From contig JBDHDE010000001.1 of the NCBI GenBank assembly GCA_039591655.1, positions 32,001-96,000 on the forward strand: a DNA stretch of 64,000 nt. The letters run 5' to 3'. The translations under genes and the position numbers were made by a program. Below the pieces are notes generated by a model. The model saw only the letters and a program-made list of their open reading frames with translations. It was not told where the DNA came from and ran no database searches. Source of the stretch: Gemmatimonadota bacterium (lineage in GTDB: Bacteria; Gemmatimonadota; Gemmatimonadetes; Gemmatimonadales; GWC2-71-9). This document shows positions 18,197 to 24,645 of the stretch, piece by piece; the stretch's first letter is position 1; the number at the start of each line of letters is the position of its first letter.

Positions 18197-19189
18197 TCAG
18201 CTCGCCTGCGGCCCTTCGCCCTTCGCGATGCTGCTCCGCATCTCCGTGTCGCTCTCGATGTTGCGGTAGCGCACGAAGTCCATGACGCCGAGATTGCCGC
18301 TGCGGAACGCCTCGGCGATGGCCAGGGGCACCTGGGCCTCGGCCTCCACGACCCGGGCTCGCATCTCCTGGGTCCTAGCGATCATCTCCTGCTCCGAAGC
18401 CACGGCCATCGCGCGCCGCTCCTCGGCCTTGGCCTGCGCAATCCGCTTGTCCGCCTCGGCCTGGTCGGTCTGGAGCTCGGCTCCGATGTTCTTGCCGACG
18501 TCCACGTCGGCGATGTCGATGGAGAGGATCTCGAAGGCGGTGCCGCTGTCGAGTCCCTTGGCCAGCACCGTCTTCGAGATGTCGTCCGGATTCTCCAGCA
18601 CCGCCTTGTGCGAGGTCGCGGAGCCGATGGTCGACACGATGCCCTCACCCACGCGGGCCAGGATCGTCTCCTCGCCGGCTCCCCCCACCAACCGGTTGAT
18701 GTTCGCGCGCACCGTCACCCGCGAAATGGCGATTAGCTGAATGCCGTCCTTGGCCATGGCCGCGACCTTGGGCGTCGCGATCACCTTGGGGTTCACGGAG
18801 ACCTGCACCGCCTCGTGCACGTCCCGGCCCGCCAGGTCGATGGCTGCCGCCTTTTGGAACGAGAGCTCGATCCCGGCCTTGTCTGCGGAGATCAGGGCGC
18901 GGACCACCCGATCGACGCTGCCGCCGGCCAAGTAGTGCGCCTCGAGCTCGTTGATGTGGAGCGTGAGCCCGGCCTTGGTGGCGGCGATCAGGGGACGCAC
19001 CACGGCAGGCGGGCTCACCTTGCGCAGCCGCATCCCGACGAGGGTGCCGAGCGCGATCCGCACGCCCGAGAACCAGGCCTCGATCCACAGCCGGACCGGA
19101 ACGAAGTTGAACAGCAGTCCCACGAAGATCGCGCCGACGACCAGCAGGACGACGATGAACCACGTTCCCATCTGCGCCAGATCGTTCAT
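18197..19189 (-). CDS. floA: Flotillin-like protein FloA (YqfA/SPFH)
   Basis: [58 protein letters not shown] before ATG 19189. Confidence 0.95.
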
Positions 19190-19211
19190 CGAGTACTCCT
19201 TAGCTTCGTAG

Positions 19212-20546
19212 TTATGCGCTCGGCCCCTCGTCGACGGGCTCGACGACGTGCCGGTAGCTCTCCGAGCTGATGATGCGGACGCGCTTCCCCTGGGCGATGA
19301 AACCCACGTCGGACACGACGTCAAGACGCTCGTCTCCGACCTTGATCGTTCCCGACGGCCTGAGGTCCGTGATGGCGACCCCTTCCAGGCCCACCAGATC
19401 GTCCCGCGTGGCGCCCGCGATGTACCCGTGCGCCCGATCGGTGGACGCCCGCAGGAAGATCCCCCGGGCGCGGCGGGCGGCGGGCAGCTTGCGTACGAGG
19501 ACGTAGACCGCCGCCACGATGATGAGGGCCGCGGCGAAGAGGATCCCGCTGGCGCGGGCCACGTCGGCCCACGTCGGGAGATTGCCGATCAACGCGAGGA
19601 AAACGGCCGAGCCGATACACAGCAGCGCGACGACGCCCGCGATCCCGAATCCAGGTACCACGAAGACCTCGATCCCCAAAGCCACCAGCCCCACGCCCAG
19701 GAGGATGACCTCCTCCAGGCCGGCGAGGCCGATGAGCAGATGGCTGCCGAAGAAGGCGGCGAGCGACAGCAGCCCCACCGCACCGGCCATGCCGAACGAC
19801 GGCGTCTTGATCTCGATGATCAGGCCGAGCGTTCCGATGGAGAGCAGCAGGGGCGCCACGAAGGGATGAGACAGGAACCGCACGAGGGCCTCAGCCCAGT
19901 TGATTCCCACGGTGACTACCTCTGCTCCCCCCAGATCGTGGAGCGCCAGCAGCGCGTCGAGATCCTCGACCTCACCGGCGGCCACGTCAAGCGCCACCGC
20001 CTCCTGGACCGTCAGGGTGAGGAGCTTCCCCTCCTCGATTACGCCCTCGATGGCGATCTCCTCGTCCACCATCGACTCCGCGATCCGGGGATCCAGCCCG
20101 CGTCGCTCGGCGAGAGCCCGCATCTCGCTCCGCATCGCGCTCACGATCTTCTCGGGAGCCTTCTGCCCCGACCCGGTGACGGGCGTGGCGGCGCCGATGG
20201 AGGAGGCGGGAACCATATAGATGGAGTCGGTGGCGAGTGCGATGATGGCGCCGGCACTCCACGCGTGCGTGTTGACCAGCGCGTGGATCGGGACCTCGCT
20301 CGCGGCAACCGCCTTGACGATCTGCTGCGCCGCGTCGATGCGGCCCCCCGGCGTATCGATGTCGAGGATCACGGCGGCAGCGCCGGCCTGTTGCGCCTCG
20401 GCTATGCCCCTTGCGATGTACGGTGCCAAACCGAGCTCGATGGTGCCCGTAACGGGTATGCGATAGACGAGCTGCTCCTGAGCCAGCCCGGCCGTTGGCT
20501 GCGCCACGAGCCAGGCGGCAACCAGCGTCATGCGCCAACGGGACAC
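19212..20546 (-). CDS. NfeD family membrane-bound serine protease (YqeZ-like)
   Basis: [22 protein letters not shown] block, C-terminal OB domain (TDLRPSG). Confidence 0.92.
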
Positions 20547-20709
20547 GGCATCCCCCGCGTAGAGGTGATACTGGAAGTTAGGGGCCTGGTTGACGGCGGG
20601 GAAGTTGCGGCGCGCCGTGGCCGACCTCTCGTGAGCCCTGCGCCACGCTGCGTGCGCTATGCGACATTCAGGTCATCGATGGAGGCCGAATCGCAGGGAT
20701 GTCTTGCGG

Positions 20710-20827
20710 GGGGAAAAGAACGCTGCGGTCTGCTGAGCCCGGGCTTGCGTGGTCCCGCTCGTCCCCTCCCGACGAGATACCTTGCCTGGCGGCAGGTTGC
20801 TCAGCAAACCGCAGTGTCGTCTTCTGC
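20710..20827 (-). ncRNA. Candidate structured non-coding RNA of unknown family
   Basis: 26-nt imperfect closing stem 20713-20738/20799-20824 enclosing two to three hairpins; wobble pattern favours the minus strand; sigma54-like element upstream. Confidence 0.5.
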
Positions 20828-20838
20828 GGTATTCAATC

Positions 20839-20882
20839 GGAATATCTGTGCCACGGCTGCGCCCGCGCGTAAGCAGTTGAGT
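20839..20882 (-). promoter_or_regulatory. sigma54-like -24/-12 element plus IHF-like site
   Basis: TGGCACAGATATTCC (20853-20839; one mismatch to TGGCAC-N5-TTGC) and ACTCAACTGCTTA (20882-20870; one mismatch to WATCAANNNNTTR). Confidence 0.45.
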
Positions 20883-20966
20883 TGCTGTAGCTTAGCGGTC
20901 CGTGGCACCGCTTCGCACCACCCGGGTTGACCGGTATTCGGCACGGCGGCTCGCAAAATAGGACAC

Positions 20967-23306
20967 TCAACCAGGCGGTTGAAGTTGTCCCGGGCTGGTC
21001 GCCGCCCCCAGCCGGACCCACCGCAGCGAGGTGACGAAGGCCAGGGCGTACATGCCAAGAGCCAACAGGTAGAGCGAGCGGAAGCCGAAGTACATCGAGT
21101 TGTACTCCAGAAACCCTCCCAACATCGCGCCGAACAGGTTGGACGATAGCGCCACCGCCACCGAGGAGGACCGCTTGAGCTCGGATGAGAACGCGAAGCC
21201 GGAGAAGAACAGCGGTAGGGTGAGCAAACCGGTGAGCAGGACACGCCCGAGCCACGGCGCCAGGGCGCTCAGATCCGCCGTCCCCAGCAACATGCCGGCG
21301 ATCAGCGAGGCACCCAGGAGGCCGTAGGTCACGATGGGCCGGGGCGCCCCGACGCGGATCACGGCCAGGTTGGCCAGGAAGGCCATGATGAGGATCGCGG
21401 CAATCACCGCGCCGACCACGATCCAGGTGCTGCCATAGACCAGGGCCAGCTCGGTGATGCCCTTGGTCTCGACCAGCATGAACCCCGCGCCAAGGAAGAA
21501 GCACGGCGCGGACCATGCGCCTCGGCCTCCGGGTGTGAGCTGGCGGAGCAGTACCACAGACAGGAGGAGCAACACCACGATCATGGCGAGATACGTGCTC
21601 GGATAAGTGCGGACCGGCATGTAGAAGAACGGCCAGTCGTCGGTCGAGACGTCTGCCCGCAGCGTATCCTGGGCGAACAGGGAGCTCTGCCGGATGTCAC
21701 GCGTCGCGATGGGCGTTGCCGGACCGGTGAGTGACTCGCCGATCACGAAGGTGTACCCCTGGTCGTAGACCGTGCGGTACACGAGGGGTTCCTGGCCGTC
21801 GAACGCTTCCCGGAGCATCAGGTACAGCTTCCTGCCCAGGCCCGGGCTGACCACGCTGAAGGTCAGGCAAATGAGGCCGCCGTCCCGCAGCCGGGCCCGG
21901 GCCTCGCGGAATGCCTCGACCGTGTAGACGTAGGAGTCCAGCCGCACCCCCCCGCGACCTGACAGCAGCGTGTGCGAGTCCAGCAGACCGTACACGATGA
22001 GGTCGTATTCCCGGTTTGTGCCGCGGATGTGGGCACGCGCGTCGTTCACGATCGCGGTGACGTTCTCCGCCCGGTAGGGCAGCGTCGGGTGCAGCAGCTT
22101 GCCGAACCTGAGAATCGCGGGATCGATCTCCACCGCGTCGATCTCCCCGGCGCCGAACTTGACGGCAGCCGCCACATCGTTGCCGGTGCCACTCCCGACG
22201 ATCAGCACCCGCTCGGGTGCGGGCTTGAAGCTATACGGAACCGCATAGTGACTCGCCCAACCGCTCACCTCGCCTTGCGGTGTGGAGTCGGCGCTAAGGT
22301 CCAGCAGCCGCTGGTAGTACACGTTGTTGACACGCACCTCTGGAGGTGCGTTGCCCGTCACGATCAACGTCAGGATCTGATATGGGGAGAAGACGTCCAG
22401 CTGGTTCGGCCGCAGTGACACTCCAAGGAGAGCAACGGCGCAGGCGCCGGCGACGGCGGTGGGAAGCAAGCTGCGCATGCGGGCGCGGAGGAACACCAGC
22501 AGCGCCAGCACGGCGGCCAGGTACCAGATCGCGGGCGGCGCCCACATGAACGACAGCACGTTGAACAGCACGATGCCGAGCAAGCTGCCGGCCAGGTTCC
22601 AGCTGTACGCGACCAGCTTGCCGCGCCGCAGCATGAGGCGGGACGCCAAATGCCCGAGGGGGATGAAGCAGACGGCGTTGAATGCGTACACCGCCACCAT
22701 GAAACCGTAGACCGCCATCGCCCGGCTGTAAGAGCCGGCGGAGTGGATCCCGAGCCCCAGTTGTTCGGTCACGGGAGTCTGCAGCGAGACCGCCACCGGG
22801 TGGTGCCGCAGCAGGTACATGAGCACGCCCTGCAACGCCAGGAGGGGCATCACGAGGGGCGTGGTGAGCGGCCGGCGGGGTCCGAGAACGTACCCGATGC
22901 CCAGTCCCAGGAAGCACGACAGGAGGCTCACGTTCTTGAAGTACGCGAAGAGCTGGAAGTAGGAGGCGTGCAGCCGGATCATCATCAGCTCGGCGTAGAG
23001 CCCCAGTCCGGCGGCGAGGGCGATGTATAGCCCCAGGCGTCGCGCGGGCAGCTCGTCGATGCCGTCGGTGTGCTCCTCCAGCAGCTTCACGATCCACGGC
23101 CACCAGCGGTGCCGGTTGAACCAGAGCGTGGCCACGAGGACTGCCAGGAGAATGGGGGAGTCGAACAAGAGGATGTCCGCCCACGACTCGAGAGGCTCGC
23201 TCCAGAACACGCCCATGGCGAACAACGTCCAGCCGACGCACACCACGGCGATGATGAGCCAGAACCACTGCTGCGCTCTTGTTGCGTGCACCGGCTCTCC
23301 GGTCAC
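20967..23306 (-). CDS. Polytopic membrane protein with central spermidine-synthase-like SAM-binding domain
   Basis: LIVGSGTGND, AVEIDP, VNDAR, YDLIVYG and TDDWPF between two TM blocks; RBS AAAGGAGG. Confidence 0.85.
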   Translation of the reverse strand: MTGEPVHATRAQQWFWLIIAVVCVGWTLFAMGVFWSEPLESWADILLFDSPILLAVLVATLWFNRHRWWPWIVKLLEEHTDGIDELPARRLGLYIALAAGLGLYAELMMIRLHASYFQLFAYFKNVSLLSCFLGLGIGYVLGPRRPLTTPLVMPLLALQGVLMYLLRHHPVAVSLQTPVTEQLGLGIHSAGSYSRAMAVYGFMVAVYAFNAVCFIPLGHLASRLMLRRGKLVAYSWNLAGSLLGIVLFNVLSFMWAPPAIWYLAAVLALLVFLRARMRSLLPTAVAGACAVALLGVSLRPNQLDVFSPYQILTLIVTGNAPPEVRVNNVYYQRLLDLSADSTPQGEVSGWASHYAVPYSFKPAPERVLIVGSGTGNDVAAAVKFGAGEIDAVEIDPAILRFGKLLHPTLPYRAENVTAIVNDARAHIRGTNREYDLIVYGLLDSHTLLSGRGGVRLDSYVYTVEAFREARARLRDGGLICLTFSVVSPGLGRKLYLMLREAFDGQEPLVYRTVYDQGYTFVIGESLTGPATPIATRDIRQSSLFAQDTLRADVSTDDWPFFYMPVRTYPSTYLAMIVVLLLLSVVLLRQLTPGGRGAWSAPCFFLGAGFMLVETKGITELALVYGSTWIVVGAVIAAILIMAFLANLAVIRVGAPRPIVTYGLLGASLIAGMLLGTADLSALAPWLGRVLLTGLLTLPLFFSGFAFSSELKRSSSVAVALSSNLFGAMLGGFLEYNSMYFGFRSLYLLALGMYALAFVTSLRWVRLGAATSPGQLQPPG

Positions 23307-23415: not shown

Positions 23416-24645
23416 TCACACTCCCCGCAGCGCGGTCGGCCCACATCGGTCGCAGCCGCTGCACCGCGGCAGCTGCTCCCCGAGGTAGGCCAGGAGCACC
23501 CGCCGCCGGCAGCCCCTGGTGCTCACGTAGCGGCCCATGGTGCGCAGGCCCCGTCGCCGGGCCTCGCGCAGGGCCGCGGAGTCGTGTGACGCCGCCGTAC
23601 CCTCACCGGCGAGGCGCCGGGCCAAGGCCAGGTCCCCGGGGATCCACAACATCTCGCACCGGGCCGGGGATCCGTCACGGCCCGCCCGGCCCGCCTCTTG
23701 GAAGTAGGCCTCCGGTCGCGGTGGGACCCCGAGGTGGGCCACCAGCCGGACGTTGGGCTGGTCGATCCCCATCCCGAAGGCGTTGGTGGCCACGATTACG
23801 CGGACCCGGCCGTCCAGGAACCGGACCAGCAGGCCCTGCCGCGCGGAGCCCGGGAGCCCCGCATGGTAGGGCAGCGCGGCGTAGCCCCACTGCCTCAGGA
23901 TAGTGGCCACGCCGTCGGCCTGATTGCGCGTCGGTACGTAGACGATCGCGCTACCCTCGAGCGGCCCCAGCAGCCGGCCCAACTCCCTGAGCCGCTCGCG
24001 ATTGGCGGGATACCGCCGCGCTGCGAAGAAGAGATTCGGCCGGTCGAACGACTGCAGGATCCGCACGGGCCGCCGCAGCCGTAGCACACGGACGATGTCT
24101 CGCCGCGTCTCAGGAGTCGCCGTCGCAGTTACCGCTGTCGTGGGCGGTCTCCCCAGTGCCGCCCGGTGCGTGCCCAGCGCCCGGTAGTGCGGCCGGAAGT
24201 CGTGGCCCCACTCGCTGATGCAGTGGGCCTCGTCCACCGCGAGGAGGCTCGGGGGCCGCCGCAGCACCGCCACCAGCTGCCCCACCCGCTCCGGGGCCAC
24301 GTACAACAGCTTGATTCGGCCAGCCCGCAGGCCGGCCCACACGGCGCTCCGGGTCGCCGGCTTCTGGGTGCTGGAGAGGTAAGCGGCCGCCACGCCACGG
24401 GCGCGCAGGGCGGCGACCTGGTCCTGCATCAGCGAGATTAGAGGGGAGACCACGATGGCGAGCCCGGGCAGGGCCAGGGCCGGCACCTGGTAGCACAGGG
24501 ACTTCCCTCCCCCGGTGGGTAACACCGCCAGGCAGTCACGGCCTCGCAGCGCCGCCAGGACGGCGCGGCGCTGATGATGGCGGAACCCGTTAAAGCCCCA
24601 GAAACGTCCCAGGATGGCCTGGGCGTCGCTCAACGTAAGCTGCAC
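23416..24645 (-). CDS. recQ: RecQ family DNA helicase, short form
   Basis: LPTGGGKSLCYQ, VDEAHCISEWGHDFRP, ATNAFGMGID, QEAGRAGRDG; terminal Zn motif CRR..CSGCDRC. Confidence 0.92.
   Translation of the reverse strand: MQLTLSDAQAILGRFWGFNGFRHHQRRAVLAALRGRDCLAVLPTGGGKSLCYQVPALALPGLAIVVSPLISLMQDQVAALRARGVAAAYLSSTQKPATRSAVWAGLRAGRIKLLYVAPERVGQLVAVLRRPPSLLAVDEAHCISEWGHDFRPHYRALGTHRAALGRPPTTAVTATATPETRRDIVRVLRLRRPVRILQSFDRPNLFFAARRYPANRERLRELGRLLGPLEGSAIVYVPTRNQADGVATILRQWGYAALPYHAGLPGSARQGLLVRFLDGRVRVIVATNAFGMGIDQPNVRLVAHLGVPPRPEAYFQEAGRAGRDGSPARCEMLWIPGDLALARRLAGEGTAASHDSAALREARRRGLRTMGRYVSTRGCRRRVLLAYLGEQLPRCSGCDRCGPTALRGV

Follow-up and report, generated by a model that had tools for sequence, protein, structure and literature searches.

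A conserved four-helix RNA family of Gemmatimonadota with motifs of alternative sigma factors upstream

A 64,000-nucleotide stretch of a Gemmatimonadota genome (positions 32,001 to 96,000 of contig JBDHDE010000001.1, assembly GCA_039591655.1; hereafter the window, from whose first letter positions are counted) holds, in the 420-bp gap between minus-strand open reading frames (ORFs) at 20967-23306 and 19212-20546, a folded element that is a real, conserved, structured RNA with four helices and a member of a multi-copy RNA family confined almost wholly to the Gemmatimonadota. This is a new family of a known kind, that of bacterial small RNAs (sRNAs) whose genes are tied to alternative sigma factors. 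A sequence-only reading of the window had proposed at this place a small structured RNA under the control of sigma-54 and integration host factor (IHF), and the motifs conserved among its relatives support that proposal. The interpretation that we prefer, with a probability of roughly 0.6, is that the minus strand from about 20708 to 20827 specifies a conserved four-helix sRNA of about 115-120 nt that is transcribed by sigma-54 polymerase, ends at its closing helix (P1) and the U-tract behind it, and takes part in an envelope stress response.

The element was first noticed through two arms, 20713-20738 and 20799-20824, reported as pairing at 21 of 26 positions; of the five differences, three were said to become G-U pairs in the minus-strand reading, compared with one in the plus-strand reading. 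A recount agrees on both points: the exceptions read G-U, C-C, G-U, A-C and U-G on the minus strand, and A-C, G-G, A-C, G-U and C-A on the plus strand. The most stable minus-strand fold of 20700-20830 has a free energy of -62.3 kcal/mol (z = -4.6), a stability reached by 0 of 200 shuffled sequences. The plus strand of the same region reaches -64.7 kcal/mol (z = -3.4), and because it also folds well, fold energy by itself cannot choose the strand. The computed minus-strand fold is the one that the sequence-only reading had drawn, a long stem closing a multiloop with three hairpins, and the hairpins are the same (P1 to P4 in Table 1). The 3' arm of the stem ends in CGUUCUUUUC (20722-20713).

Relatives of the element carry the argument for an RNA. 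Within the same genome as the window, BLAST picked up a single additional copy, which is diverged: its inner part is 81% identical, and its closing stem differs in sequence and is still complementary. Over 61 genomes (G000 included), BLAST gave matches in 15, among them 9 of the 10 other genomes of the same genus. Twenty-three copies were aligned with MAFFT (alignment A1) and the structure was written on to give a covariance model, R1, which finds three copies in the window's genome: copy a, in the window, and copies b and c (Table 1). Two larger alignments, both fitted to the covariance model and both made up of sequences related to each other, keep the pairing: in A3 (47 sequences) 94.8% of the cells are paired, compared with 33-47% in controls with slid partners, 24 of the 32 pairs show compensatory changes, and 0 of 500 shuffles reach what is observed, and in A5 (78 distinct sequences from 83 matches) the corresponding values are 94.5%, 36-48%, 27 of 32, and 0 of 500. 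A plain MAFFT alignment has two-sided changes at 10 of the 24 pairs predicted by RNAalifold, with the covariation of P1 between paralogues visible in it. The multiloop structure proposed from one sequence thus shows strong covariation in relatives, and P1 in particular varies in sequence among paralogues with its pairing kept. Across P3 and P4, by comparison, runs a near-invariant core, GGAGG-GGACGAG-C-GGGACC..GC, in which the P3 loop GGAGG and the 3' arm of P3 are near-invariant among homologues. A mutual-information scan of the alignment returned the known helices only, with no extra helix, pseudoknot or antiterminator pairing.

As to the strand, R1 scores the plus strand of the window copy at only 33.5 bits, compared with 114.6 bits on the minus strand, and across the 32 pairs of A5, an alignment fitted in the minus orientation, there are 131 G-U cells versus 42 A-C cells. 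The counts of G-U and A-C cells, the promoter motifs on the 5' side and the U-rich run 3' of P1 all favor the minus strand.

The sequence-only reading had not recognized the RNA as SRP, 6S, tRNA or a riboswitch, and searches of databases and literature gave no known family: the whole window gave no match in Rfam 15 at the gathering score, a search at E up to 10 over 20500-21000 gave only mir-483 and a long noncoding RNA, both eukaryotic chance matches, and our full-text literature searches turned up no description of this RNA. An R1 scan of 151 genomes of the family gave matches in 34 genomes, from 17 of 78 genera, with one to six matches per genome. A second model, R2, built from A3, matched 13 of 151 genomes of the phylum; leaving G000 aside, the matches are in 11 of 71 genomes of family f1, 1 of 6 of family f6, and 0 of 73 of ten other families. 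An exact scan for the core pattern, with one genome per species, found 65 loci; R1, with E up to 1e-8 allowed, confirmed 56. All 56 are titled as Gemmatimonadota, Gemmatimonadales, Gemmatimonadaceae or Gemmatimonadetes metagenome-assembled genomes, bar one labelled Myxococcota, and there is no cultured-strain title among them. Of the nine loci that R1 did not confirm, two are in a bin of an uncultured bacterium, and seven bear the titles Actinobacteria, Streptomyces, Glycomyces, Bacillota, Chloroflexia, Steroidobacteraceae and Deltaproteobacteria.

The second line of evidence lies upstream of the RNA. Promoter motifs were counted over 74 distinct copies, 73 of them with upstream sequence, and the controls were random windows of the window's genome. 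The sigma-54-type promoter claimed for the window, TGGCAC-N5-TT(C/T)C, holds up in this comparison, being kept at a fixed distance in 37 of the 73 copies and found in 33 of 20000 random 75-nt windows (the pattern counted was TGG[CT][AG][CT]-N5-TT[CGT]C, ending 5-18 nt, in one case 30 nt, before the model start). If the C at 20839 is taken as -12, transcription would start 12 nt downstream, at about 20827. The window's genome encodes rpoN (PF04552, 220.5 bits), nine strong candidates for the activators of sigma-54, known as bacterial enhancer-binding proteins (PF00158 matches of >190 bits each), and two genes of the HU/IHF family. A simple scan for sigma-70 promoters over 20450-21050 found none.

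The IHF-like site marked by the sequence-only reading, ACTCAACTGCTTA (20882-20870, minus strand), coincides with the right half of a palindrome of 25 bp, TAA-N19-TTA, which is conserved and ends 16-17 nt before TGG in 17 of the 37 sigma-54-type copies, compared with 14 of 20000 windows of 55 nt. The palindrome may be made of two inverted half-sites, YAA-N4-TTG ... CAA-N4-TTR; the IHF consensus is quoted as WATCARXXXXTTR in PMC3045617. The genome has a second, unrelated sigma-54-type motif (TGGCACAGCCCATGC, in C14:46046-46134) with a TAA-N19-TTA palindrome ending exactly 16 nt upstream; this promoter precedes a 329-aa ORF whose N-terminus resembles a signal peptide, and no TGTC-N10-GACA was seen upstream of its motif. 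Because the same palindrome recurs there at the same spacing, we read the palindrome as a probable general site for a bending protein rather than the site of a specific activator. Genome-wide, the looser palindrome TAAS-N17-STTA has 104 strand matches, compared with about 60 estimated from base composition; many fit TAAGTCATTG-N5-CAATGACTTA, and the palindrome may be what a global HU/IHF-like protein binds.

Farther upstream, 23 of the 37 sigma-54-type copies carry TGTC-N10-GACA (at most one mismatch), compared with 701 of 20000 windows of 150 nt, and 18 of these 23 sites start 112-115 nt before TGG. The consensus of the site bound by GlrR is quoted as TGTCN10GACA (PMC3045617). A search of the window's own genome for other promoters with TGTC-N10-GACA before a sigma-54 motif gave none that was convincing.

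Paralogues of the RNA stand behind a different motif, one of extracytoplasmic function (ECF) type: GAAAC-N15-18-CGTA ends 4-19 nt before the model start in 20 of the 73 copies, compared with 9 of 20000 windows of 90 nt, and copy b has GAAACC-N15-CGTAG at C53:3723-3748. In Bacillus subtilis, promoters of sigW are described with TGAAAC at -35 and CGTA at -10 (PMC5758882), and the promoters of these paralogues appear to be of a sigW-like ECF form; from the motifs only, we infer that they depend on an ECF sigma factor. In the window's genome TGAAAC-N17-CGTA sits 13 nt before an ECF sigma ORF (C9:40413-41012, with Sigma70_r2 and r4_2 domains). Within C9:40373-41575 the ECF sigma gene and the next ORF are each preceded by TGAAAC-N16/17-CGTA, and the same ECF motif precedes genes for a TolC-like outer membrane efflux protein, an HlyD-like membrane fusion protein (MFP), an M48 peptidase, a Ser/Thr kinase and TetR (own genome; loci L146 and L147), so that the genes behind it form a candidate ECF regulon. 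Neither promoter motif was found at 16 of the 73 copies, including copy c, and at least one such copy has a sigma-70-like hexamer pair, seen by eye.

Some of the paralogues are stand-alone genes. ECF-type copies are convergent with argH in eight loci, and in two others, from two genera, they diverge from a gene for a small HNH endonuclease of about 200 aa (L034:712-1323 and L025:1729-2388); the argH-convergent copies are followed just downstream by a separate strong GC-rich terminator hairpin with a U-run; and copy c is antisense to both of its neighbors. In three loci a hlyD-like gene and an ABC ATPase gene flank the RNA, all on one strand, and the U-tract is slight or absent.

Table 1. The RNA, its parts and upstream elements in the window, the neighboring genes, and the three copies in the genome (nt, nucleotides; R1, covariance model)
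Feature	Position	Strand	Details
Predicted transcript	20708..20827	-	~115-120 nt; start (~20827) and end (~20708-20713) both predicted
Covariance-model match	20713-20824	-	Model R1
A-rich extension GAAGACGACA	20815-20824	-	5' of the P1 arm
P1 5' arm CUGCGGUUUGCUGAGC	20799..20814	-	16-bp closing helix; all 16 pairs with compensatory changes (78 sequences)
P2 hairpin ACCUGCC-GCCA-GGCAAGGU	20779..20797	-	Loop GCCN conserved; 6/6 pairs covary; 99.1% of cells paired
P3 hairpin CUCGUC-GGGAGGG-GACGAG	20758..20776	-	95.9% of cells paired; 2/6 pairs covary
P4 hairpin CGGG-ACCACGCAAG-CCCG	20740..20757	-	82.5% of cells paired; GGGACC..GC near-invariant
P1 3' arm GCUCAGCAGACCGCAG, then CGUUCUUUUC	20713..20738	-	Terminator-like U-tract, 6 U in 8
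-24/-12 element TGGCACAGATATTCC	20839..20853	-	Sigma-54-type; -12 part TTCC (canonical TTGC)
25-bp inverted repeat TAAGCTACAGCAACTCAACTGCTTA	20870..20894	-	IHF-like; ends 16 nt before TGG; center near -56
Activator-type position	20948..20965	-	Window TGTCCTATTTTGCGAGCC; relatives TGTC-N10-GACA
nfeD1b	19212-20546	-	Pfam; constant downstream neighbor of the sigma-54-type copy
floA	18197-19324		After nfeD1b; Pfam
Copy a (window)	C1:52713-52824	-	R1 114.6 bits
Copy b	C53:3765-3876	+	R1 94.5 bits
Copy c	C15:74959-75069	-	R1 75.4 bits

The surroundings of the sigma-54-type copies and of the other copies are cleanly divided. Twenty-five sigma-54-type loci have 380 nt or more of flank on the downstream side; in 24 of them (the exception is L053) tblastn places NfeD downstream on the same strand, compared with NfeD beside 0 of 37 other copies, and a RecQ-like helicase lies directly upstream on the same strand in 20 of these 25 loci, the window's own locus being one of the 25. 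In this genome only, a 779-aa ORF (20967-23306, with a spermidine-synthase-like domain) lies between the recQ-like gene (23416-24645) and the RNA; right after its stop comes a terminator-like hairpin with a T-run (20966-20983), and the T-run overlaps the adjoining TGTCC half-site. The stretch that separates the RNA from nfeD has a conserved motif of two blocks, TTTCGC-N17/18-TA(A/G)CTT, seen by eye at four loci (20561-20620 in the window and three relatives, from at least two genera), the window retaining its TAACTT block at 20580-20575; this motif is possibly nfeD's own promoter, and offers a hint of the housekeeping promoter form of the phylum.

The yknWXYZ genes of B. subtilis encode an MFP-ABC pump. 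Together with yqeZ (nfeD)-yqfA (floA)-yqfB, they are described as core operons of the sigW regulon (PMC3498285), and because its nfeD-floA and MFP-ABC neighbors resemble these operons, the RNA family sits in membrane-stress surroundings. On this genomic context we infer that the RNA is a riboregulator of membrane or envelope stress.

A mechanism for such a regulator can be pieced together from the parts. An activator bound near -130 would contact sigma-54 polymerase via a bend at the palindrome near -56, transcription would run from about 20827, and P1 with UUCUUUUC would stop the greater part of it about 160 nt short of nfeD. The functional product would be the RNA as such, acting in trans through its core GGAGGGGACGAGC-GGGACCACGC (loop and arm of P3, arm and loop of P4). 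At least 5 U in the 8 nt after P1 are present in 26 of the 37 sigma-54-type copies, and several genera have 7-8 U. In the window the U-tract follows a 26-bp stem enclosing a 59-nt multiloop, and a simple terminator scan does not call a terminator there because its loop limit is 8 nt.

Several observations weigh against this picture of a sigma-54-driven, terminated, trans-acting RNA. The -12 part of the promoter is TTCC or TTTC in most copies, the window's included, and TTGC in a few. The activator-type site of the window keeps its left half only, and because the right half is degenerate the window copy is outside the 23 that carry the site. At the 3' end, the U-tract of several same-genus relatives is weak, with 3-4 U in 8, and nfeD starts about 66 nt after the RNA in five of the ten such relatives compared; co-transcription with nfeD is likely there. 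In the public metatranscriptome run X1, one 232-nt contig represents a relative's copy and matches 20715-20814 at 92 of 100 letters; it starts inside the 5' strand of P1 and runs about 130 nt past P1 through the U-run, which, for an assembled contig of an RNA library that gives no ends, strand or proof of RNA origin, is a weak hint of read-through. The downstream part of this contig found no placement on any locus compared. Searches of the 95% complete genome found no Hfq, ProQ or CsrA (PF02599), and a genome-wide search for 12-mer complementarity to the three copies gave 461 places, about the chance level estimated for the G+C content.

Part of this evidence speaks for a cis-acting leader, an alternative that the sequence-only reading had itself named, or attenuator. 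In that case the sigma-54 promoter would be the stress promoter of nfeD-floA with the four-helix domain as its 5' leader, and P1 with its U-tract would choose between termination and read-through, a choice perhaps set by a bound protein or ligand; in other loci the same module, behind an ECF promoter, would gate an MFP-ABC pump. We consider this distinctly less probable than a trans-acting sRNA. It keeps a minority share of the odds because the linkage to nfeD is near-perfect and the U-tracts of some relatives are weak; the short distance to nfeD in half of the same-genus relatives compared, the three loci in which the RNA is placed between hlyD-like and ABC ATPase genes, the continuation of the X1 contig beyond P1, and a core that stays near-invariant while P1 varies, as in a sensor domain, also speak for it. 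Against it, paralogues that are convergent with argH or antisense to both neighbors stand alone with terminators of their own, and co-orientation with a downstream gene, the rule on which a leader depends, holds for the sigma-54-type copies (24 of 25) and the three MFP-ABC loci and fails for the argH-convergent copies and for copies b and c. The U-tracts of 7-8 U in several genera, the two-block motif if it is read as nfeD's own promoter, and the lack of any alternative antiterminator pairing in the mutual-information scan likewise argue against a leader.

A combination of the two ideas, in which the four-helix core is a riboswitch-like sensor of a ligand or protein placed behind sigma-54, ECF and, for at least one copy, sigma-70-like promoters and P1 doubles as the terminator, seems doubtful to us, and more so than the simple leader. 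Binding would then decide between a short RNA and read-through into nfeD-floA or MFP-ABC genes, and the stand-alone copies would report in trans.

Two further explanations are very improbable. The inverted repeat, the A-rich 5' and U-rich 3' flanks and the presence of more than one copy per genome could suggest a dispersed repeat, whether a repetitive extragenic palindrome (REP) or a miniature inverted-repeat transposable element (MITE), or a mere terminator of the upstream gene without RNA function; however, the element is no dispersed repeat, since the genome has three copies only, which are diverged and have different yet paired P1 sequences, synteny is conserved across genera with specific promoters before the copies, the internal hairpins are conserved and covary, and the upstream gene has its own terminator-like hairpin (20983-20966). 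An overlapping small protein-coding gene, for example the plus-strand ORF at 20699-20872 (57 aa), would draw on the open frames that overlap the region, which are common at 67% G+C, but homologues have 1- and 2-nt indels in loops and junctions and their variation is compensatory across helices, which argues against such a gene, though no protein search was aimed at these frames.

If the RNA is a trans-acting sRNA, its partner is with about equal chance a protein that reads the core or a set of C-rich sites in mRNAs, to which the exposed loops GGAGG and ACCACGC would pair. A platform for a protein or ligand fits because P3 and P4 are invariant though paired, the ends are locked in a helix, and Hfq, ProQ and CsrA were not found; the two exposed loops would be compatible with loop-initiated pairing to C-rich mRNA sites. 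Whole-length RNAduplex runs against nfeD leaders gave meaningless long duplexes. RapZ (PF03668) and Ro/TROVE (PF05731) were not found in the 95% complete genome either. The suggestion that the loop-exposed GGA might sequester a protein is not supported in a CsrA-like form, as no CsrA was found and each RNA has a single GGA loop, and a sponge of the CsrB/RsmZ type was rejected on the same two counts. Other candidates were tried and rejected: a Y RNA or YrlA (no Ro protein found, no Rfam match), an sRNA dependent on Hfq or ProQ (neither protein found in the genome), and GlmZ-like action on glmS (only about 12 nt separate glmS from glmM, the gene before it, and no RapZ was found).

Our literature searches turned up no report of a regulatory RNA from Gemmatimonadota, a phylum common in soils and sediments. 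The family offers a complete unit that can be tested: activator-type and IHF-like sites, a sigma-54-type promoter, a four-helix RNA with covariation, and a terminator-like end, with sister copies behind ECF-type promoters. It also affords an initial look at the form that promoter elements of the sigma-54, IHF-like and ECF types take in the phylum. The arrangement suggests that more than one stress pathway feeds into a single RNA fold, next to the flotillin genes nfeD-floA. Should the core prove to be a sensor or a platform for protein binding, the family would represent a new class in which RNA controls membrane-stress genes.

The closest likeness among known systems is to GlmY and GlmZ of Enterobacteriaceae, described as paralogous structured sRNAs with sigma-54 promoters, TGTCN10GACA activator sites and IHF between them, some paralogues having switched to another sigma factor (PMC3045617). 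The form of the activator site is identical to that in the relatives of the RNA described here. Unlike GlmY and GlmZ, this RNA has no Rfam match (GlmY_tke1, GlmZ_SraJ) and folds as a four-helix junction closed by a terminator-like stem, and it occurs in a different phylum, with no RapZ found and no long glmS leader. The Qrr1-5 RNAs of Vibrio are multi-copy sRNAs that are driven by sigma-54 with a response-regulator activator, depend on Hfq and use a single-stranded seed. The family shares with them its multiple copies and sigma-54-type promoters, and differs in that no Hfq was found here, a long helix holds both RNA ends, and Rfam gives no match. MicA, RybB and MicL are ECF-sigma-dependent sRNAs of the envelope stress response with an Hfq-dependent mechanism. 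The paralogues with TGAAAC-N16/17-CGTA, in a family found beside homologues of nfeD-floA and of MFP-ABC genes, recall the sigW regulon as described for B. subtilis (PMC5758882; PMC3498285). They have no likeness to MicA, RybB or MicL in sequence or structure, and an Hfq-dependent mechanism is unlikely here. In Escherichia coli, the psp promoter combines sigma-54, PspF, an IHF site and an upstream activator site before membrane-stress genes. The arrangement in the window is similar, with a sigma-54-type promoter and IHF-like and activator-type sites before membrane-stress genes, but unlike in psp the first product here would be a structured RNA rather than a coding message.

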